DNA from: Sminthopsis crassicaudata
Lineage: Eukaryota
Assembly (NCBI RefSeq): GCF_048593235.1
Contig: NC_133622.1
Location: 249,740,055-249,804,054, forward strand
Length of the DNA stretch: 64,000 nucleotides
Reading direction: 5' to 3'
Shown: piece after piece, positions 620-39,599 of the stretch
Position numbering within the stretch: position 1 is the stretch's first letter
How the letters are laid out: every line of letters begins with the position of its first letter
Position numbers and translations under genes: made by a program
The notes under the pieces: model-generated
The model's database searches: none
Seen by the model: only the letters and a program-made list of their open reading frames with translations
Told to the model about the DNA's origin: nothing

Positions 620-2791
620 TCACTTCTTCTGGGGTGTGCTCAGCTTTTGCATCCCTCGGATCTTGTCTAGCAGGTCAGAGATGAAGGCCTGGTGGGAGAG
701 AAGCCAAGTTGGGGCGGGGAGGGGCTCCGTGGGACCCAGGCGTCCTGGCTGGGACACCAAAAGCCCTTGGATGGGGGAGCGGCTCGGGGATGGAGACCCC
801 CCCACACCCACAGTCTCTTACCTCGGTGGGTTTGTAACAGTCAACCAACAGCTCCTGAGGGAAAGAGAGGCACACGGTGAACCCCTTGAGGAGCCTCCTG
901 CCCAGCCCAAACCTGCTCCAGAGCTGCCCCGAGCTCAGGGACCCCCACAGGCGAGCCCTGAACGTGCAGCTAAAGCCCAAGGCTTGCGCCTGTGCCCGCT
1001 ACAGGCCAGGGGCTCGGGCTCTAGCACAGGGCAGCGCCCCTGCCCCACCTTGACTCGGGCAGCCCGAGTGCTGTCAGTCTCCATGTCCAAAAGCTCATCC
1101 ACGTCAATCTCCAGCTCAGGGATCTCTTCTTCCTGGGGACAGAAGGGGCTGAGTTGGGCACAGAGGGGAGAGGCTCCTGGGTGGGCTCCCCTGCCCGCAC
1201 CCTCAAGCACCCCCTCCCCTCCTCAAGCACTTTTGGAAGGTAGAGGGTGGCAGCTGCAGGGATAGAGAACCAGGGCCAACAGCACAGGGCTGAAGGGGAG
1301 ACAAATTGCCAGAAAAGAATCAAGGCAGCATCCTGCCAGCGGGCACAATGGGGCCAAAGGAGGAAGGGTGCCAAGCGGGTATTGCCAGGGGAACCCCAAA
1401 GTGAGGGCGCTCAGAGGAGGAAGACGAGGGGCAGGGAAAATAAGGAACAGGGCAGGCAGAAAGAAGATGGGTTCCTCCTGGCAAGGGCCGATCCCCCCTC
1501 GGGCACAGGTGGTGCCAGCTGCCTCTGTTCAACGGCTCCTGCCCCCATTCCCTCCTCCCCCCAAACACCTGCCATGAGCTTCCTGCCCAGCATGGGGGAG
1601 GGGGGCTCCACCACATCCCAGCCCCCTCCCTGGGAAGCAGCAGCTGGAGAGGGGAGAGGAGAGGAAGTGAGGATTGGGAGGGGTCAGAGGTCAGACCTGA
1701 GAAGCCTGGGACCCTTGGAAACAGGAACAATGGGAGGCTCTGGAGAGGGGGAGGGAAGGAGCCCCCAGCAGACCCTTCCAGAAGCAGCTGCATTCCAGGG
1801 CAGGGCCGGGGCCTCCCCCCACCGCACCGCACCGCACCCTTGGGTCCCTGACTCATCTCCATCAGCAACCCGAGTCGGGGAGGAGAGGGCGGGAAGAGCC
1901 CGGCGGGCAGACAATGGGCGCCTCCCCGCTCCCGCTCCCCAGCCAGGGCCGCCTTCCCGGGTCTCTGAGACCGCGCATGGGGGCGCCAAACAAGGGCCCT
2001 CCGTTCCATCTCCGAGCCGGGACTGGGAAGCCGGCACACCACGAGGGCAAGGGGAGGGGCGAGGCGAGTTCCGGGCCAGAGGGGGCTGGGCAGGGGGTGC
2101 ATTAGAGGAGGGCACAGGAGGGGAAGAGGAGAAAGGAGTGGGGGAGGGGAGCGTTCCAGGCTGGCCAGGGGTGATCGGGACGCCAGGGAACTGAGGCCAG
2201 TGGGAGGAGGAACAGGCTGGCGGGGTGGGGGGGGGGCTGGGTCTCAGGCCAGCTGGAGAAGGGGTGGGGAGCAGCATGGGGGAGAGTGGGGAGGGGAGAG
2301 GGGGGAACAGAGTCCCAGACTAGGAGGAGGAGGGGAGCCAGAACTGTCCCAGACCAGCAGGGGGGGCGCGAGTGAGGCCAGGGTCCCAGATGGGGAGGGG
2401 GGAATTGAGGCCAGGGTCCCAGATCCGGGGAGTTGGTGCCGGAGTCCCAGATCATCGTGGGGGTTGGGGGGAAGGTTCTTAGTCGGAGACGGGGCAGGGG
2501 GCCAGAGGGGGATGGGGGTGGGCGGGGTCCCGGCCCCCCGCTCACCTGGCAGTCGTACAGGCCGGTGAGCTGCTCCAGGATCCACTCCTCCAGGTTGAGC
2601 CGCTTCCGCAGCTCCTTGCGGTCATACTTGACCGTGACCTTGCCCTGGCGCCGCACCGGGCCCTCGTCCTCCGCCCCGGCCGGACCCTCGCCCGCCGCGC
2701 CCGGGGGGCTCTGGAAGTAGACGCGGGGGCCGGGGCCGGCCCCCCCGGGGGCCGCCACCGCCGCGCCGCCCGCCGGGCCGCTGTCCGCCAT
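620..2791 (-). CDS. PPP1R14B: Protein phosphatase 1 regulatory inhibitor subunit 14B (PHI-1), 143 aa, 4 coding exons
   Basis: Exons 2791-2546 (MADSGPAGG...RQGKVTVKYDRKELRKRLNLEEWILEQLTGLYDCQ), 1132-1049 (EEEIPELEIDVDELLDMETDSTRAARVK), 854-822 (ELLVDCYKPTE) and 688-620 (AFISDLLDKIRGMQKLSTPQKK*). All introns are GT-AG and phase 0. The CPI-17/PHI-1 phospho-Thr motif RQGKVT is intact. Confidence 0.97.
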
Positions 2792-3350
2792 CCGCGGCCG
2801 GGCCGAGGCCGAGGACGCCGGGCCACGTGCACGCACGCGCGGGGCGCCCGCGGGCGGACGGACGGACGGACCGCCGGACGGCGCCAGGGGCCGCTGCCCC
2901 CCGCCGCGTTCCGCCGCGCCCCGCCCCGGCCCGCCCCGCCGCCGCCCTTTGTCCCCGCCGCGCGAGCCGGAGCCGCCGCCGGAGCCTCCGGAGCCGCCGC
3001 CGCCGCCGCCTCTGTGTCTCGCTGGCTCCCCCTTCCCCGACCACACCCCCTTAAAGGGCCCGCCTCGCTGCGGGCCGCCCCCTCCCCAGCCCGGGCCGGC
3101 CTCCGCGCTCGGACCCGGGCCCGCCCCCCGCGCTCCCCCTCCTGAGCCCGGGACCCCGGCGCCCCCGGCCTCAGACTGCGGGGAGCCCCCGATGGGGCGT
3201 GGCCTGGAAGAGGGGTCGAGTGGGATAGCGAGCGCTTTCGTTCCTCTGTCGCTTACCTCCCCCCCCCCCCCCCCCCCCCCCCGCACCGCGCTGCAGAGTT
3301 GAAAGACCACTGGGGCGGGGGCAACCGGCACCGTTCAGGCCAGACTTGGG
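2500..3350 (-). promoter_or_regulatory. CpG island / promoter of PPP1R14B
   Basis: Dense CpG and GC-box content over and upstream of exon 1. Boundaries are approximate. Confidence 0.75.
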
Positions 3351-3908
3351 GGGTCTGAGGGAGCCCCCAAGATGGCTGCGCCCCGAGCAGTCTGGGCAAT
3401 GTAGTTCCGAGGGTCGTGTTGGGTCGCCCATCCCCCCACCGGACGCTCAGGCCTTGCTCCCCCTCCCCCCGCTAAGGATCCCCTAGCTCCGGAAGAGCGC
3501 TGGGGAGTGGGGCCGGGGGCCTTCCCGGAGCCCTTCCCGAGGTGCATCGTGTCCCCTCGGCCCCGGTCACCGAGCTCGGCCCCCGTCCCCAGCCCAAGGA
3601 GCCCTGTGGCGGACGGACAGGAGGCGCACCGGCCCCGAACTAGCGCAGCGGGAAGGCCGCGCCTTCGGCCCGACTCCACCACGAACCCATCTCCGCTTGT
3701 TTCCGTAGAAACAGCTCGACTTCCGCTTGTTAGCCCCATTTGTGGCTGTTCGGTCCGCTCCGCGCGGCCCCATTTAGGGTTTTCTGGGCAAAGTCGCTGG
3801 AGGACTTGGCCATTTCCTGCTCCAGCTCGTGGGGAAACTGAGGCAGACTGGGCCACATAGCAGGGAAGAGCCTGGATTTGAGCTCCTGGACGTGCTCTGT
3901 GCACTGCG

Positions 3909-3925
3909 GCGCCCCCTAGCGGCCC
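3909..3925 (-). promoter_or_regulatory. CTCF-like motif
   Basis: The reverse strand reads GGCCGCTAGGGGGCGC, a close match to the CTCF core CCASYAGRKGGCRS. Binding is not demonstrated. Confidence 0.55.
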
Positions 3926-4223
3926 CATTTCGCGGAGGAAAAACTGAGGCAGGCAGAAGGGCAGTTCTGAGAGCATTAGAACTCGGGGCTTGCCTCTCTG
4001 CGCACGACGCCACCTAGCTGCCTCAAGGTGAAGCGTCACAGGTCCCCCCTATTGCTAGGAGGAGGACTCTTGGCTGGTGGGAAACTGAGGGTCAAAAGAA
4101 GCCGACTCAGTGCTCCTTCACTTGGATCTGGGTCAGAGGGCTTGGGTCCAAATGGAAGTTGGGTGGGAGAAGGTGGGATGTGGGCGCCTGAGAACCTCAG
4201 CCCAGGATGCTTCAGACCCATTT

Positions 4224-4326
4224 AGATGCAGGGTCCCGGGTGCTGGCCGAGATGCAGGGTCCCGGGTGCGGGCCGAGATGCAGGGTCCCGGGTGCGGGCC
4301 GAGATGCAGGGTCCCGGGTGCGGGCC
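4224..4326. repeat. Minisatellite, 26-bp unit x4
   Basis: Unit agatgcagggtcccgggtgcgggccg, tandemly repeated and near-identical. Confidence 0.9.
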
Positions 4327-5009
4327 CAGCCCTTCTTCATCTGGAGCCGAAGCAGCCAGCTGACCAAGTGAAGATGGCCGGAGCCCGAATGGCAGCAGTA
4401 ACGACTTAGGAGCCAACAGTGAGACGGGAGAGGTGGGATTGGAAAGAAGTCACCCACTCATCAAAGGAGACAGGCCCGAGCTCAGGCCATGCCCAGAGAC
4501 TGTCGGGGGCCAGGAAACGGAGGAGATGGCCACAAAACAGGGGTGGGCAGCAGGAAGGAAACCAGAGGCTCAGGAGGAAGGTCTGTGCTCTGCTCCCGGC
4601 TCCGCTGAAGCCTTTTATGAACGGGAGGAAGCAGGCCCAACGGGAAGACCCCCGGATTTTGGACCTCCAGTCAATGCAGAGCCCCAACCCAGTTCTAGAG
4701 GACTCATAATGAAAGGTGGTTTGCTCCAGAAAAGAGCTCAGAGACCTCCCCCCAGGCCCAACGAGCCATATTTTCTTCATTTTCCTTTCCTTGTTTTTGT
4801 ACGTGGCTGATGTATTACCATGATTGTATATTTGCAATTTTCTTTTTTTTTTTTTTTTTGCCTTCTCTATATGTGGGGGAAGGAAGAGAAAGAATTCAGA
4901 ACTAAAATAAAATAAAATTGAATTTAAAAAATCAATTGAGACTTTTTTTTTTTTTAATGGTACAGGAGACAGATTGCTGGGTTTGGAGTAAAAAAAAATG
5001 AAATTCAAA

Positions 5010-5110
5010 TCTACTTTTGGATACTTACTAGCTATGTGACACTGGCCAAGTTATTCAACCTCGGACTCCTCCTCTGTGAAATGGGGATCATTAATATTTG
5101 TGAAGCACCT
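5010..5110 (+). mobile_element. CORE-SINE (MIR-like) fragment
   Basis: acttactagctatgtgacactggccaagttattcaacctc...ctctgtgaaatgggg resembles the MIR core. Confidence 0.55.
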
Positions 5111-14398: not shown

Positions 14399-30219
<15,821 letters not shown>

Positions 30220-30787: not shown

Positions 30788-31319
30788 AGTGGATTCCAAG
30801 GCCTGCACCACCTGTTCTTGTGTGATTGGGGATCCGGCCGATCCCAGGGGCAGCTCCCACAATCAGAGATTGGATGGACAGGAAGCTTCCGAGACTCCCT
30901 CTAGCCCCTTTCAAGCTAGCTTCTCCTCTGTTAGTGTCACCAGACACAGTTGGAACGCCCTTCTGTTCCACACAATCCAACCCATCTTTCCAGACTCGCC
31001 CTGAACTGGACTGGAAAAGTCACTGGCACAAGACCTAGCTGCATCCCTACAAACAAGTCCTGGGGTGGGTGAAAGTCCTCCAGGCACAGAACTCTTCTAG
31101 CTCATACCTGTAGAGACCAGATCTTGGAAGCTGGGATGATGTATGTCCCCTTCTCCCTGGAGGGCCTGGAGCAGAGCTGTTTAATTATTCAGTGCTCTTT
31201 ATTCAAGGCTTTCCAAGAGGGACTAGAGCAGCGCCTTGGGGAATAATGGTTCACCCAAATCTCGGAGGTTCATCCTTAGAGAACTTGTCCAAAAACATCC
31301 TCCGAATCAATAAACCAGT

Positions 31320-32400
31320 GCTTCCGAATTAGGGTTGGTGCTAAGTGTTGGCCATTAAAAAAAAAAGTCTTCCCCTCAAGGATATCACAGTCTGATGGGG
31401 AAGGAAGGTGACAAACAAACTAGAGACTGGAAAAACAGGACATAATTAATGGAGAGAAGCACTGGGGGATTAAGCATTGGAAAGACTTCCTGCAGAAAGT
31501 GGGGTTTTAGTTGGGATTTAAAGGAAGCCTGGAGGTCATTGATCGGAACTGGCAGAGAAAGAGCCTTCTGGGCATTGGGTGAGAATGCTCAGGTTGAGGG
31601 TCCTATTCTCAGAGGCCAGTATCACTGCAGAATATGTGTGGGGGAATAAGATGTAAGAGGGGAATAGTTGAGGGGAAGAGATTGATGGAGGGTTTTGAAA
31701 GTTTGCTCCTGGAAGTGATAGGGAGTCACTGAGGAGAAGCTTGACACGGTCATACTTCATTTTAGGAAACTCAATTTGTTGGCTGAATGGAAAGAGAGGC
31801 TTGAGGCAGGCAGACCCCCTAGTAGTTGTTGCAGTAGTTTAGGTGTGAAGTGGTGAGGGTCTGCACCTGCCGAGGGGGTGCTATCTCAGGGGAGAAAAGG
31901 GAGCATATTAGATGTGAAATCCACAAGAGATATCACAAAAGTGAAATCTACAAGAGATGTTACAAAGATGAAATCCACAAGAGTTGTTTGTTACAAAGGT
32001 GAAATCTACAAGAGATACTCCAAAGGTGAAATCTACAAAAGATACTGACAAATGAAATCTTTTAAGATATATTCCCAAGGTGAAATGTACCAGAGATGTT
32101 GCAAAGGTGAAATCTACAAGAGATATTTCAAAAGTGAATCTATAAGAAATGGCTGGAAAAGTGAAAGGCCTTTACCACAACTTGGATGGGGCTGGAGGGG
32201 GAGTCCAGGATGACTTGGACCCTGAGGGAGTGGGAGGATGGCTGAATGGTAAGCTAAGAGTAGGGGGAGGGGTTGGAGAAGGTGAAGGTAAGATCATTAG
32301 TTCTATTTTAGACATGTTGAGTTTAATTCTTCTACTGCAACCTGAAACTAAAAGACAGCTGGAGGTGTGAGAAATTGGAGGTCAGGAAACAGAATGGGGC
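31320..32400 (-). mobile_element. Old LINE-2-like remnant (3' region) with an internal tandem expansion
   Basis: Purine-rich degenerate sequence (gtgctaagtgttgg...ccctcaaggatatcacagtctgatgggg; ggaaagacttcctgcagaaagtggggttttagttggg) typical of L2 3' ends in marsupials. Similar remnants lie at about 50400-51000 and 51200-52400. Confidence 0.55.
31912..32145. repeat. About 27-bp tandem repeat, about 9 diverged copies
   Basis: Consensus approximately aaaggtgaaatctacaagagatrttnc. Confidence 0.85.
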
Positions 32401-32585
32401 AGAAAATATAGATCTGAGAAACAGAATAAATCAATTTATTTTTATTTTTTTAATCGATTTAATTTGGTTCTTTCATATTTGATTCATTTTGGTTGGAGTT
32501 TCCCTTGGCTCCCGTTAGCACAATCCTGCTCTCTTGCCCCTCCATCATTTTCTGCTCTTCTTCCTGGATTCCTCTGCTTTCCTGA

Positions 32586-33023
32586 TGAATGAGATAAGGT
32601 GAGATCTCTCAAGACAGTTGCGAAAATCGAGTAAGGCTTCATCTACTTCAGAATTCTAGTAGGCCTGAAGGACTTTGAAGTTCAAGTAAAGGACATTGCC
32701 TTCCCCTCCTATGATATCTCCCTATTTCATCCAAATATGGGCAACTATGTACTTATTGGTCAAGTTCAATTTCATGGGTAGATCTCGCGTTTAGAATGTA
32801 AGACTCTCAGCCAATGAGGATGAGGGTCAGTGGTGGGAGGGGGCGTTTTGCTTTAGGGATTAAAGGTGCTGTCCTGCCCACAGGAGGCGCTTCCTCTCTT
32901 CGATAGTCTACTCGAAGAGTGGGACGCCCTTCTCGCGAGAAGTACAATAAACTTTGCTTTTCTCTAGAGCTCTCTCCAGCTTTTTTATTAAATGGTGTTC
33001 CCTCACCATTTCCGTACCACACA
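32586..33023 (+). repeat. 5' LTR (438 bp)
   Basis: tgaatgag...gtaccacaca, with CCAAT (32810), a GC box, TATA-like ATTAAA (about 32859) and AATAAA (32946-32951). Identical to the 3' LTR except at 32852. Confidence 0.96.
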
Positions 33024-33026
33024 GTT

Positions 33027-33043
33027 TGGGGGCTAGTCCGGAT
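33027..33043 (+). promoter_or_regulatory. Primer-binding site, tRNA-Pro type
   Basis: TGGGGGCTAGTCCGGAT versus the canonical tRNA-Pro PBS TGGGGGCTCGTCCGGGAT (one substitution, one G missing), 3 nt after the 5' LTR. Confidence 0.8.
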
Positions 33044-33429
33044 CCTTTACTCGGTGAGTAAGTGAACTCCTGGGTGCTAGTGGGATGGCGCCCTGCCTTG
33101 ATTTAGGCAGCCCGCCAGCTTCCAGGGGCTTCTCCTTGCTCCCTGACGTAGAGTGGACCCGAAGTGGAGAAACTCAGAGAAAAGCAACGGAAACTCCGCG
33201 GTGAAAATCCCAACCGGTTGGTGGAGGACAGATCAGTCAAGAAATTTGCTGCGCAGCAACCCAGTGGAGGTAAGCGTCCTGTGAAGCCCCTTGAGTCTAG
33301 TTATAGGTTCTGGAGGGGGCTGTAGACGGTAGACAGGAAGAGAGCTAGGCCTTCCTGGGTGACTGAGCTAACAGGCGACTGTTAGCGTGTTTGGGCGTTT
33401 AGGAGTCTGTTAAACTCCTTCCAAATTCA

Positions 33430-33600
33430 ATGGGTGTGGCCTAGTCCCAGCCAGCCCTCGCGGAGAGAAATGAGAAAAATATCAGAAAATACCGGTAGAT
33501 ATTCCCTTGGGAGATAAATTAAGTAATTGGAACAAACTGCCAAAATATGAGGAAAAATAAAAAGCAAGAAAAAGATAAGGTATTGTTGTTTTGTTGCAGA
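33430..33600 (+). pseudogene. Degenerate gag matrix remnant
   Basis: Translates as QKIPVDIPLGDKLSNWNKLPKYEEK* then, frameshifted, KIRYCCFV. This resembles the class I ERV MA motif IPxDxPLG..L..W....K.K..I.YC. No capsid, protease, RT or RNaseH is recognisable downstream. Confidence 0.5.
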
Positions 33601-34369
33601 CTGGTGGTGCCAAAAGGATTAAATGGTACCTGAAAGGAAGGACCTGAGAGGATTTAATTCCATTAGCCCTTCCAGGGGCCTTCAGGCGGGGAGGAGAACT
33701 AGGTCTTTTGAAGCAGGGGTCGTTTCAGCTGACCAGAAATAGCTGTTAGTAGATCCCATTTGGGATCAGAAACCTTGTACATGGGGAAGTATGTGGGATT
33801 GAGCCAGTGAAGATGGTGGCTTCCTTCCTCTTCCTCCCACGTGTCCTGACTGCAGCAGGGCCACGTGGGCCGGGGGAAAGAAACTGCTATTTAGTGAAGT
33901 TCATTGTTTTAAATCTGATAGCAAAGTAGTTTTATATTATTGGGAATTTAAAGCTGTGATTGGGATTTTAAGTTAAAACATAGGTTTTTAAAACAATGCT
34001 GGTAGCTTACTTAGGGGAGGTTGTGGTTGTATCTCCCTACTTAGATGGTATGTTTGCTAGAGGTATTGGGTAATTTGTAACTGAGCTATGCCTTAAGTAT
34101 TTGTCAGCTCTGGGCATGTATTAAGTTTTATGAAATTTGGGTCAGTTACGTGCAAACATTGAAGTGTAAAGTTTAAAAATATATACATATATATTTACTT
34201 AAAGACGGACAGGAAAGATTGATTTGTAAAAGTAATTAATAGTTTAAATGGAGCTATGATATATTGGGTCGGGAAGCATGGTGGTGTGGGGGAAGGGTGA
34301 CCACGTGGAGAGGTCCCTCCTCCCATTAAGTATAGTGGGTTTTTTTTTTGTTTGTTAGTTTGTTTTTAA

Positions 34370-35363
34370 CAACTGCACCAGGGCAGTCACTGGGATGTCC
34401 AAAACCTGTGTGATGCTATACTGACAAGGTATGTTTCCCCCGGCCTATATACTATGGCTCCACAACTGGTGGACGGTTGTCTTGTTTGTCGAAGGACTAA
34501 CAGGGCTGCCCAACGCCAGCTTCCAAAAGGGGGACGACCTCCTGGAATCAGACTATTCCAAAGCATCCAGGTGGACTTTACTGAGCTGCCACCAGTGGGT
34601 CGCCTTAAGTTCTTGCTGGTCATAGTGGACCATCTGACCTCATGGGTGGAGGCATTCCCGTCAGGCCGAGCAACTGCCTCGACAGTAAGTAAGGTCTTAT
34701 TAGAACAAATTATTCCTAGGTACGGAATGGTGGAGAGGATAGACTCGGGTCAGGGAACACATTTTTCTGCCCAGGTATTGCAGAATCTGATTAGGGCCTT
34801 AGAAATCACTTGGGATCTCCATACCCCTTGGCATCCTCCCTCTTCTGGGAACGTAGAAAGGATGAACCAAGAAATAAAACGGCAGTTGACTAAGTTATCT
34901 TTAGAGACCCAACTACCTTGGACGAAATGCCTTCCTCTCGCTCTGGTTAGAATCAGGACCAAGCTGCGTAGAGATATTGGGCTTTCACCTTATGAATTAT
35001 TGTATGGTCATCCTTTCCAGGCTTATCCTAAGGGAGACTGGGACCCTATTTTAGAAACTAAGGATTTGTTTGTTAAGAGATATGTTAAATCATTGCTGGA
35101 ACATTTGCAAGGACTTCAACAAAAAGGGCTAATAGCTCAGACTCCTCCTCTAGGTTTCCCTGTTCATAGAATTCAGGTTGGTGATTGGGTGCTGATCCAA
35201 GAAGCTGACTCCATGCTGGGACGGACCCTACCAAGTGATACTGACTTCAGATACTGCGATTCGCACTCAGGAACGAGGCTGGACACACCACACCAGGACA
35301 AAAGCACCTGTGGCGCCACCGTTATCAGAGTGGACAGTTGAAGACAGGGGAGACCTCCAATGA
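34370..35363 (+). pseudogene. ERV integrase (pol 3' end), catalytic Asp mutated, C-terminal frameshift
   Basis: Open frame from 34370: LHQGSHW...GCLVC (HHCC), IQVDFTELP, IDSGQGTHF (catalytic D replaced by G), SSGNVERMN, LSPYELLYGHPF. A frameshift near 35200 leads into WDGPYQV...GWTHHTRTK*. Confidence 0.9.
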
Positions 35364-35388
35364 CATAAGAGGAGGGGACCTCCACTGA

Positions 35389-37154
35389 ATGGGAATTGTA
35401 ACTGTATGACTTTTCTTACTTTGGGTCTCTTTGCCTGTTTGTGATTTGATATATTTTCCTTTGGGAAGTTCACCTTAACTTTACGGTGTTATAATAGTTG
35501 AACATTATGAGGCTCTCCCTAAGCTTTGGGTTTATCTATTTCCTTATGACCTTCTAGAGATGAGAACCAATTTCTCCTGCTCATGCAGAATATAGGGAGC
35601 ACATTTAACTTATCAAATTGTTGGACCTGTGGTGGATCCCAACAATTGAACCAATGGCCATGGGTACCTGTCCCCTTAAGCCCAGCCTGGATCCTTAGCA
35701 ACAGATCCCAAATTCATAATGGGACCGGTTTCCAGATTTGAGAAGAGAAACATCAGTGGTCATTGACCAAAGATAGGAAAGGGAAATACTGCTTAAATCA
35801 GACAGGACAAGGTTTGAAGCTGGGAATTAGTGTATGTGAGTGGACCTATTCGAGAACAGACCTGAGGCCAAAGACAATTGACTGTACAAAAATGTCTAAA
35901 TATTGGCGGGATACGGGGAGGAATCCTCAATTGAAGTGTGGGAAGGACTAGAAAGACTGTACCTTGGATGTTCTCCCAGAAATAGGAGAGCAGGGATATT
36001 GCTATCAACAAGTCACTACTGCTGAGTGTAGTGAAGTAGAATGGGATGTATTGGGATGTATAAAAGAGAATAAGAGGAAAGGGAACATATACATTGGGTA
36101 CAGTTACCAATGGGGTTGGTATAATGTCACCCCAGGGACACCCGGGCAACATGGGACTCTGTTTTCCACATTTTGGAGTACCTCTAATCTAACAGGCCAG
36201 TGGCCAGTTGCCAATTGTAGTTGGAGAAAAGAGCAAGGTTTATGAAAATGCCAGTAAAACCCCTTTGTGGGGGAAGCCCCCTAGGGACGAGAGACCAACA
36301 ATATTACCCTTTTACAAGGAATAGCTCAAGACATATTTCCAAGGGAACAACCTGCTCTAAAGGGTCATTATTGGATCTGTGGTTTAACTGCCTATACTCA
36401 TCTGCCTCTTAATTGGACAGGGAATTGTTATATTGGACTAATAAGGCCAAAAGTTTTCTTTCTTCCCGAACAGGCAAACCAATATTTAGGGATTCAGTTG
36501 TATGATAATTTGGGAAGGGAGAAACGGAGTTTAGATACCTCCATCACTTGGACTGGAGATGCAAATGGTTGGGGTGAGGCCTGGCCTCCAGAAAGAATAG
36601 TCAAAGAGTATGGGCCAGCGACCTGGGCTCAAGATGGAAGTTGGGGATATAGAACTCCAATATACATGTTGAACAGGATAATTAGGCTTCAGGCAGTTGT
36701 AGAGATTATCACCAATCAGACAGCTGAGGCACTACAGCTTTTGGCTGATGAAGCTACTCAAACCAGAGAGGCTGTTTTACAACATAGACTTGTGCTGGAT
36801 TACTTGTTGGCTGAGGAAGGGAGAGTTTGTGCTAAACTAAATTTATCCACATGTTGTATAAAGATTGGTAACAATGGTAATCTAGTGAAAGAAATCACTA
36901 AGAACATTAGGAAGCTTGCTCATGTTCCTGTACAGACTTGGACCTCACTGTTCAATACTTCTTGATGGTCCTGGTTTGGGAAGCTGGAAGTTGGAAGTTG
37001 GCAGCTCCTTTGGTTGGGCCTTATAGCTTTTAGTGGTGTTATATTATTCCCTATCTACATCCCTTGTTTGATCAGATTAATAACCAGAATTGTCCAAAAC
37101 TCATCATCTGGAATGATCAGGTTGGAAGAGAAAGCTGAAGGGTCTGTTAAATAG
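35389..37154 (+). pseudogene. ERV3/HERV-I-like env pseudogene
   Basis: ENQF...NLSNCWTCGG...WPW (SU), GHYWICG, furin site REKR, WPPERIVKEYGPATWAQDGSWGYRTPIYMLNRIIRLQAV, ISD LQHRLVLDYLLAEEGRVC, CX7CC, a hydrophobic anchor and a natural stop at 37152-37154. There are six in-frame stops between 35550 and 36965. The start at 35389 is tentative. Confidence 0.9.
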
Positions 37155-37276
37155 ATGCTGTTAAAAGGGTAAGGGTGGAGCCGGTGGCCCAAGGCCAACA
37201 GAAACCAGAAGGAAGTGAGGAATTCATAGGGAATGTGAAATTATGTTACAAAAATTTGAAGAGATCTCAGTGTACA

Positions 37277-37292
37277 AAATAAGAGGAGGGAC
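37277..37292 (+). promoter_or_regulatory. Polypurine tract
   Basis: aaataagaggagggac directly abutting the 3' LTR TG. Confidence 0.85.
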
Positions 37293-37730
37293 TGAATGAG
37301 ATAAGGTGAGATCTCTCAAGACAGTTGCGAAAATCGAGTAAGGCTTCATCTACTTCAGAATTCTAGTAGGCCTGAAGGACTTTGAAGTTCAAGTAAAGGA
37401 CATTGCCTTCCCCTCCTATGATATCTCCCTATTTCATCCAAATATGGGCAACTATGTACTTATTGGTCAAGTTCAATTTCATGGGTAGATCTCGCGTTTA
37501 GAATGTAAGACTCTCAGCCAATGAGGATGAGGGTCAGTGGTGGGAGGGGGCGTTTTGCGTTAGGGATTAAAGGTGCTGTCCTGCCCACAGGAGGCGCTTC
37601 CTCTCTTCGATAGTCTACTCGAAGAGTGGGACGCCCTTCTCGCGAGAAGTACAATAAACTTTGCTTTTCTCTAGAGCTCTCTCCAGCTTTTTTATTAAAT
37701 GGTGTTCCCTCACCATTTCCGTACCACACA
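37293..37730 (+). repeat. 3' LTR (438 bp)
   Basis: Copy of the 5' LTR with a single difference (G at 37559 versus T at 32852). AATAAA at 37653-37658. Confidence 0.96.
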
Positions 37731-39599
37731 CTGACAATAGCATTATAGTACACGATATTCTACTGGACCAATCACCCTCTCTTTGATCCTACATTTTTGG
37801 TCCAGTTTTTCATTTACTCAAATACTGTGGCTATGATTTTTTTTTAAGTCCATATGGGTCGTTGACCTTGAAATGTTTAGGTCAGAGTAGACCTGGAGTT
37901 CTCCGGACCAACTACAATGACCCGTCTTCAATAGCAGATTTTTGAGGAATCTGGTATTTATCACTGCGTGTAGTTGGAGAGAAGTAAAGAGGAACGAGAT
38001 GGTATTTGGTCTGCAAAGGATTGAGGGATTGCTCACCATGATTCCTCAGGCACCCAGGGCCCCCATTTTGGAACTAGTGCAACATAAGTTAGGAGGGAAA
38101 CATGGAAGCAGCAGAGCCAGGTCTGGAAGCCAGGTGTCCTGAATTGAGGTAGTTGGCTCTTGCCGGCACCCCCCATTGCTCTTCCCTGCCTTGACCTATC
38201 CCAGCTACAAGGAGCTCTTAGGCTGCAGGTGCAGAGGAGCTGCCTGTTCTACTCTGCTGTCACTTTCCTGAAGGCTGAACCCTGGGGAGAGCAGCACCAC
38301 TGGGCAGGGTCCCTGGGGCAGCTATTTCTGGAGTGTGCTTTCTATTTAAGGTATATCAGGCTGGAGAGCTGTCTCCCAAGCACGTGCCTCCCAGCATGGC
38401 TGCAAGCCTACAGCCCAGCTGGGGCCCCAGGCAGCGGGAGAGCAGTTCCGGCCAGTCCTGGGAGATCAAGAAAAAGGCCACCAGAGGCTGGCCCGAAGGA
38501 AGCCGGCCCTGTGCACATTGCAGTTGGATTAGAAGGCAGAGGGCCTGGCTTTGGGACTGGGATCGCAGGTGAGTCATTTCCTGCTTTGGGCTTTAGCTTT
38601 TGCTTAGTGTAAAAGTAGGGGCTCCGATTAGCCCTCCTAGTGGGGGCTCCGATTAGCCCTCCTAGTCCTGGCATTCCACCTTCTAAGGTCCCTCTGAGGC
38701 TGAAATCCCATGCTCTGAGGCCATTTCCAGCCTTGAAATTCCATATTTTAGGGCCTGCCCTGTTCCAGAATCCTCTGTTCTCAGTCAGGTCTGCCCAGCT
38801 CTGGTGGTCCTCAGTTGACCTGTTTCCACAGCCCCGGGGTCAAGAGGCTGACTTAAAACTCTCCCTACTCCCCCTCCTGCCTCCCCACCCATTAGGACCT
38901 AAATGCCTGAGCTGGGAGAGGAAGGCAGTTTCTTATCTCCTGCCAATCGTCTGTTCTCTCACTTTTTGCCAAAGTTTGGAGCAAACAGGAGATGGGGTGG
39001 GGAGGAAGGGAGGCACAGGGAGATTACAAAGAAGCAACATCTTTGCCAAGGAGTTCTGGCTCCGGCCCCTTGGTGGACACACGGGGCAGTGGGGTGGCCG
39101 GTTGGAGCCCTTTGGGACTGCCTGAGGAAGCTTGAGCCAACTGCCCAGCCCTGCCCTCCCTTCGAGCCCAGCCACACTTTCTCTTTGTGCCTCGGTTTAT
39201 CATTTTGGGTTGGATTATCTAAATCTAACACCTCACTTTCTTGATCTGAAAATGTGGCTCTGTCCCAGCTGGCCCATAAATGTTCCTTGTCAATGTTAAG
39301 TCCAGCTTGACTTTCCTAACATTCCAAGCTTCACCTGTTCTCTGGGTAATCAGGCCCTACAAATAAGAAGCCCCTGAAAGCTTTCCTGCCCAGCCTGGAT
39401 CCGATTGATCCTGCAAGGCTCGCCTGCTGTGGAAGGCTGGCCTTGACCATGAAAACGTCCCACTTGGATGGAAGGCACCAGGAAAGTCGTCTACTTTCAC
39501 CCCTTCCTTTGATAAAATGAAGAAACTGAGACTCAAAGGAATCATAGGATCCCAAGAAGGGAACCCAGAGGGCCTCCAGTGCCACTCTTTTATTTATTT

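Follow-up and report, generated by a model that had tools for sequence, protein, structure and literature searches.

How can a provirus that has no reverse transcriptase (RT) of its own have been inserted recently? The question is raised by a stretch of 64,000 nt of the Sminthopsis crassicaudata genome (NCBI RefSeq assembly GCF_048593235.1, contig NC_133622.1, positions 249,740,055 to 249,804,054 of the forward strand), hereafter the window, in which a provirus at 32586-37730 combines nearly identical long terminal repeats (LTRs) with a decayed interior. This provirus is very probably a recent insertion of a non-autonomous class I endogenous retrovirus (ERV) family that has been mobilised in trans. 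The family is apparently an undescribed, long-lived, non-autonomous class I ERV; no description of it was found in the literature searched, and Repbase and Dfam, whose entries were unchecked, may already hold its LTR. The parts of the provirus are as follows.

32582..32585, plus strand: target site duplication, left copy, 4 nt, from the sequence of the window
32586..33023, plus strand: 5' LTR, 438 nt, with CCAAT at 32811, a TATA-like element at 32859 and a poly(A) signal at 32946
33027..33043, plus strand: primer-binding site (PBS), an altered form of what we take to be a tRNA-Pro-type site; 5 of 12 siblings have the altered form too
33054..33151, plus strand: small leader intron, GT..AG; a single contig from X1, a putative RNA run, shows it spliced out
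33270..34358, plus strand: second intron, GT..AG; the spliced contig end runs on over a deletion junction of the window type
33430..33620, plus strand: remnant of gag (matrix), a decayed stub that 4 of the 5 young siblings compared have in identical form
33800..34352, plus strand: AT-rich non-coding filler, the family-wide substitute for most of gag, protease (PR) and RT
34352..34379, plus strand: junction, with 9-10 nt of microhomology, of a deletion of about 1.8 kb that removed the RNase H remnant and filler
34370..35363, plus strand: integrase remnant, from domain matches and sibling comparison
35370..37154, plus strand: env remnant of ERV3-1-like type with six internal stops
37277..37290, plus strand: polypurine tract (PPT)
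37293..37730, plus strand: 3' LTR
37731..37734, plus strand: target site duplication, right copy, 4 nt

The two LTRs, 438 nt each, differ at one position (32852), the same four bases stand at both borders of the provirus as the target duplication, and the ratio of observed to expected CpG is 0.55-0.59 in the LTRs versus 0.13-0.22 in the flanks. A preliminary description, made from the sequence alone, had recorded LTRs identical at 437 of 438 positions, an intact target site duplication, retained CpGs, a decayed gag stub, a frameshifted integrase without a catalytic residue and at least six env stops, and all of these are borne out. The gag remnant is a short, frameshifted stub. The zinc finger (H2C2) and core of the integrase share one open frame (34370-35341), in which the second acidic residue of the DDE triad is lost (34748), and the C-terminal domain is frameshifted near 35197. 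The env frame is interrupted by internal stops at 35739, 35949, 36243, 36255, 36282 and 36963. PR, RT and RNase H had all been described as missing. This holds for PR and RT, for which the provirus contains no reading frame, but RNase H is absent only because of the deletion of about 1.8 kb at 34352/34370; the deletion is private to the window copy (its junction is spanned by 1 of 40 scored hits), and siblings keep an RNase H remnant. No tRNA genes were found within the window by ARAGORN. A search of the host's own genome for the origin of the filler returned family copies only (best 40 of 1114 scored).

The window copy belongs to a large family. An LTR search of the host genome gave 2,293 candidates, the best 40 of which were scored and are 98-100% identical, and the exact 21-nt LTR-PBS junction occurs 224 times (reversed control, 0), a lower bound on the number of family proviruses. 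The 37 copies examined comprise the 13 closest with two LTRs, 4 picked by integrase and 20 from 100 listed junctions, the last mostly absent from the integrase search results; none of the 37, out of at least 224 proviruses, contains RT. A typical copy is about 7 kb long and consists of LTR, leader, gag stub, filler, a short piece of the connection between RT and RNase H, RNase H remnant, integrase, env and LTR. Duplications of 4 nt, every one at its own site, flank 26 of the 29 siblings that could be measured, as well as all 3 solo LTRs; the remaining three siblings are a tandem arrangement, a copy with a duplication of 5 nt and an old copy with no match. LTR pairs differ at 0-1 columns in 12 of 12 closest siblings, and their identity is 91.5-100% in a second sibling set (16 measurable pairs). 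As expected of a non-autonomous LTR retroelement, the cis signals (paired LTRs, PBS, PPT and target duplication) are intact, neither RT nor full Gag occurs in the 37 copies, and the same lesions are found at independent loci. The family is placed in class I (gamma-like) by its gamma-type integrase with a C-terminal domain of murine leukaemia virus (MLV) type, its TLV-coat env and its 4-nt duplication. Some family copies retain an open RNase H-integrase frame. In siblings L033 (6990-7299) and L042 (7036-7464), a second LTR of 89-91% identity directly adjoins the 3' LTR, the result of integration within an older LTR of the family or next to one.

The decay of the interior precedes the insertion. 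Compared with 33 copies, the window copy has 3 private substitutions, all of them in the 3' part (2,923 nt) and none in the 5' part (1,317 nt). This count, 3 in 4,240 internal bases, is about that predicted from one LTR mismatch; the window copy differs from its siblings by 1.0-3.7%. Five of its env stops are common to 13/29, 25/29, 13/32, 1/32 and 14/31 copies, respectively, and the sixth is flanked by two small indels that permit no clean comparison. The loss of the integrase residue is common to 9 of 30 copies. Private lesions are few, namely the large deletion, the C-terminal frameshift of the integrase (16 of 17 siblings differ from the window copy) and one env indel; an integrase frameshift of some kind is present in 13 of 17 young siblings. 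Because private substitutions are few and the env stops recur at loci with other target duplications, the decay is regarded as inherited. The preliminary description had likewise dated most of the decay before a young insertion and had named as support sibling loci with the same stops and different target duplications, which exist (the stop in 25 of 29 copies is an example). At 2e-9 substitutions per site per year, an assumption and not a measured rate, the LTR mismatch corresponds to 0.57 million years (Myr; 95%, 0.01-3.2) and the private changes to 0.5 Myr (0.1-1.5), so the window copy would have been inserted within about the last million years. G-to-A hypermutation was considered and rejected, as 36 G>A versus 26 C>T private changes in 18 copies are no clear excess. 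The ratio of nonsynonymous to synonymous change (pN/pS) in young copies is 0.27-0.56, a value based on small counts, uncorrected for transition bias and uninformative on selection.

The family copies are recombinant mosaics. Among 18 aligned 3' halves with 125 informative sites, four-gamete incompatibility affects 19% of site pairs within 200 nt versus 48% beyond 1 kb, a difference reached in 0 of 1000 permutations, and the nearest sibling of the window copy switches along its length. Mosaicism is the result to be expected from template switching between co-packaged RNAs. Altered and regular PBS forms coexist in a tight cluster of copies that are 0.3-0.4% apart (L035, L037, L040), a mixture that would fit either restoration of the site by the primer tRNA in some daughters or recombination.

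The RT-less layout, with filler in place of gag-RT, is already present in the oldest copies, L074 (91.5% LTR identity) and L080 (94.4%). At the assumed rate, 28 substitutions in 460 nt correspond to about 15 Myr, a figure that CpG decay may inflate. What had been called an old, dead interior is better phrased as one inherited from a long-lived RT-less lineage. The closest RT-bearing relatives found, L045 and L054, are both broken; their RNase H, integrase and env match those of the family at about 80%. Since the LTR of the family matches that of these old relatives at 70-75% (the LTRs of L045 are themselves 74% identical), it is the lineage's own. In a public protein collection, the best matches are echidna proteins, at 68% for integrase (P0003) and 76% for env (P0060); the collection seems to be without the host's own family proteins, so the ceiling of 68% for integrase says little. 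The echidna matches hint at an Australian lineage common to monotremes and marsupials. The env matches proteins named ERV3-1 Env-like from birds, reptiles, sharks and mammals at 50-63%, and the integrase matches bird and shark ERVs at 50-64%. A HERV-I-like label (HERVERI, HERVIPADP) is presumed here as a lead from the env protein names. Through these names the family would be allied to the ERV3-1-env/HERV-I-like class I lineage (PMC4724089, in part).

The insertion appears not to be fixed. In a comparison of sequencing runs that covered 31000-37292 of the window, a contig of single-copy depth in DNA run X3 tracks the flank, with four single-nucleotide polymorphisms, to exactly 32585 and continues with 1,865 letters that do not fit; it apparently represents the empty allele. 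Contigs of run X9 (possibly the source of the assembly) and of X1 pass from the flank into the LTR without differences. In X1, taken to be RNA, two loose contig ends fit GT..AG splices from 33053 to 33152 and from 33269 to 34359, and the spliced transcript derives either from the window copy or from an unassembled one that shares its deletion junction. Run X8, which has a second organism label, also contains the family. An empty allele and an LTR-driven transcript were both anticipated by the preliminary description, and both are apparently present. Few private changes, recurrent env stops, mosaic copies, an apparent empty site, an apparent transcript and the absence of RT in 37 of 37 copies therefore support mobilisation in trans, which the preliminary description had proposed.

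Under the explanation proposed here, a retrovirus whose env was ERV3-1-like would have given rise, some 10-15 Myr ago (at the assumed 2e-9), to a derivative in which filler took the place of most of gag, PR and RT but the LTRs, PBS, leader and PPT were retained. Source copies in the genome would be transcribed from the LTR, as the X1 contigs weakly indicate, and the RNA would be packaged and reverse-transcribed by the proteins of another retrovirus. Template switching between co-packaged RNAs would shuffle the lesions into the mosaics that are observed, and a class I type integrase would join the product with the observed 4-nt duplication. The deletion of about 1.8 kb could have occurred during reverse transcription or later, which are indistinguishable.

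Which virus could have supplied the proteins? Possibly, although not probably, a replication-competent class I retrovirus that is not intact in the assembly and is germline-active now or was until very recently has sustained this RT-less parasite (200+ copies, 10+ Myr). Such a helper would possibly have crossed lineage lines, as a REV-like virus carrying a relic of the ERV3-env/HERV-I-like kind. A REV-like class I family is present in the genome (L084-L093, L095), with the LTR end of MEGrv 1 and a PBS type different from that of the window family. Its 11 copies have LTR pairs of 90-99.6% identity, with 4-nt duplications in the 5 copies that have clean ends, and it is the sole sampled class I family whose insertions cover the same period as the RT-less family. 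Many of its copies are internally deleted to 7-7.5 kb, and the closest 40 are mostly solo LTRs. In another dasyurid, MEGrv 1 is reported to have intact open reading frames and identical LTRs (PMC11334065, in part). A REV-like (MEGrv 1-type) virus is tentatively put first among candidate helpers, short of an even chance; a virus from the same lineage as the family, so far unsampled, is conceivable but doubtful, and anything else is unlikely.

Several observations weigh against trans-mobilisation by such a helper. All 11 REV-like copies fetched are broken, similarity to the window family was not detectable in LTR or leader, and the closest REV-like LTRs are mostly unpaired with few young pairs, so the REV-like peak may have been earlier. 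The longest stop-free frame in the integrase search was 554 amino acids (best 147 of 8,702 candidates scored), and no stop-free frame of pol length was found by the RT searches with a public relative (best 117 of 8,420) or with L045 (best 110 of 6,166). Twelve loci chosen for good gag or RT scores are all broken and lack a pol-length frame. These searches give lower bounds, as the best of thousands were scored in an assembly of one haplotype. The empty site is deduced from the point at which the X3 contig leaves the flank, its onward letters being unseen; the RNA status of X1 is a guess, and each splice is known from a single contig. An intact gag-pol-env copy with the window LTR, which the preliminary description had expected, does not occur among the scored hits, and the search with the Gag p30 family scored the best 150 of 618. 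Long copies were also considered as helpers and rejected: L081 and L082 contain insertions without RT, and L031, with a 10.4-kb LTR pair, owes its length to a beta-type LTR-gag-LTR element of 3.5 kb nested in an otherwise ordinary copy of the family. As a separate observation, near-identical old ERV RT fragments recur at 30-170-kb spacing (C3:337.28-338.46 Mb, C7:82.4-82.7 Mb and C5:267.2-268.9 Mb of G000), apparently carried in segmental duplications.

The helper could instead belong to the family's own lineage, as an exogenous virus or a rare polymorphic provirus that is missing from the haploid assembly and occasionally refreshes RNase H-integrase by recombination; this is a serious possibility, although not one we expect to prove correct. 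With cognate LTR ends, PBS and packaging signal, no cross-recognition would be needed. Old and young RT-less copies show fixed differences of 2-6% across all regions, and the excess of these at third codon positions (24/44, p 0.003) is a hint that a coding relative contributed early on. Integrase also differs less than filler, if only slightly (2.5% versus 4.2%, p 0.049), and an open RNase H-integrase frame is kept in some copies. However, the fixed differences in env are spread over the codon positions without bias (5/3/5), and no RT-bearing relative closer than about 80% was found, L045 and L054 being old and broken. Activity over 10+ Myr should have left young full-length copies, yet among 65 LTRs of the youngest type there are 23 pairs, which all span 4.5-7.5 kb except that of L031 (10 kb, nested insertion).

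A family resembling the beta-type, IAP-like MEBrv 3 might provide Gag and RT, with integrase from open-frame family copies making the 4-nt joins. This is improbable. We know of no route by which free integrase is packaged into the particle of another virus, and the integrase is frameshifted in 13 of 17 young siblings and only weakly constrained after the loss of RT, even if a splice (single contig, putative RNA) places integrase behind the leader. MEBrv 3 is reported to be intact and active in several dasyurids (PMC11334065, in part), and a young beta-type element is nested in L031 (G000:C1:348284157-348293723, oriented 1564-5080). This element is 3.5 kb long, with an open 619-amino-acid gag, no pol, 478-nt LTRs that are 99.4% identical, a 6-nt duplication and a PBS unlike that of the window family. 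The start of its gag resembles MEBrv 3 by eye (PMC11334065 supplement, in part), and it is probably a non-autonomous MEBrv 3-like derivative. The 4-nt duplications of the family versus the 6-nt duplication of the nested element therefore point to a class I integrase, and not to the abundant, active beta-type family, as the integrating partner.

It is more doubtful still that the provirus is old and that gene conversion or assembly collapse has given its LTRs a young appearance. Low divergence can mislead, as only 10 of 19 low-divergence human ERVs are absent from chimpanzee (PMC4724089, in part), but the interior of the window copy is independently young (3 private substitutions in 4,240 nt), all 12 close siblings likewise have near-identical LTR pairs, the same organism label includes an apparent empty allele, and the flank-LTR joins appear without differences in contigs of two runs. 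Spread by L1-driven retroposition, reported for ERV RNA in the Tasmanian devil (PMC4408412, in part), or by DNA-level duplication can practically be dismissed: the LTRs at both ends are complete, a poly(A) tail is lacking, the duplications are consistently 4 nt long, and the flanking sequences of the loci are unrelated to one another.

By analogy, the family may work like VL30 or ETn of the mouse. VL30 is carried by MLV-type particles; ETn/MusD elements are class II, have autonomous partners with the same LTR in the genome, and show defective copies dominating new insertions by trans-complementation. Mouse VL30 and the window family are both non-autonomous class I elements with full LTR structure and 4-nt duplications, and a beta-type ERV with a 6-nt duplication nested in VL30 parallels sibling L031 (PMC6677723, in part). 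Unlike VL30, the window family has another host and origin and keeps remnants of RNase H, integrase and env. In the cattle ERVK[2-1-LTR] D-type elements, defective copies also dominate new insertions by trans-complementation, but these elements belong to class II, and autonomous partners with the same LTR make up 15% of the genomic copies (PMC10924933, in part). In the window family, RT was found in 0 of 37 copies.

The preliminary description had drawn an analogy to koala PhER/recKoRV. These resemble the window family in being marsupial, non-coding, multi-copy and transcribed with an env remnant, but PhER, compared by description and not by sequence, is 8 kb long with 478-nt repeats, and recKoRV has borrowed the LTRs of koala retrovirus (KoRV) (PMC5696478, PMC6112702, both in part). 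The LTR here is native and 70-75% like that of old RT-bearing relatives, and the recKoRV analogy is a poor fit. A recombinant of recKoRV type was rejected, as the same old relatives match the family throughout, in LTR, gag stub, RNase H, integrase and env, and the fixed differences are alike across regions. MEGrv 1-3 are, like the window family, class I ERVs of dasyurids (PMC11334065, in part). In comparison with these, the family is distinct from MEGrv 2, whose LTR, PBS and env differ by eye, from MEGrv 1, whose LTR end is the one found in the REV-like family and not in this one, and from MEGrv 3, which is set apart by its Table 3 description only (281-nt LTR, MLV-like). The env motifs of the family gave 0 hits in translations of the supplement (PMC11334065, in part).

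The provirus had been placed between the genes PLCB3 and BAD. The BAD gene is confirmed on the downstream side (minus strand, Pfam E 1e-26); the upstream gene, on the plus strand, has a PLC-beta C-terminal match with an E of 7e-6, just under the cut-off, and its name PLCB3 is assumed from synteny. The provirus lies about 2.3 kb past the stop of the PLC-beta gene. Two minisatellites are found near the insertion, at 31906-32168 and 28089-28325 of the window (27-nt and 26-nt units). Past the PLC-beta gene, coverage in X1 has a depth of 140 up to 31657 (window 31000-31657) and of 10-14 over 31691-32615, which reaches into the LTR; if X1 is RNA, this coverage represents a long 3' untranslated region with read-through towards the provirus.

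The kind of element is already known; the family appears to be new, and the missing helper is the point of interest. To our knowledge, a non-autonomous ERV is normally accompanied by its helper. In the present case the family, with at least 224 proviruses, is still segregating, while all class I RT loci that were scored are broken. An unsampled retrovirus in a dasyurid-like marsupial is predicted. Little is known of the retroviruses of these marsupials, in which cancer is common (PMC11334065, in part). If the prediction is true, the segregating insertions would be traces left by a retrovirus of Australian marsupials that is still undiscovered and is not KoRV. The polymorphic insertions double as population markers.

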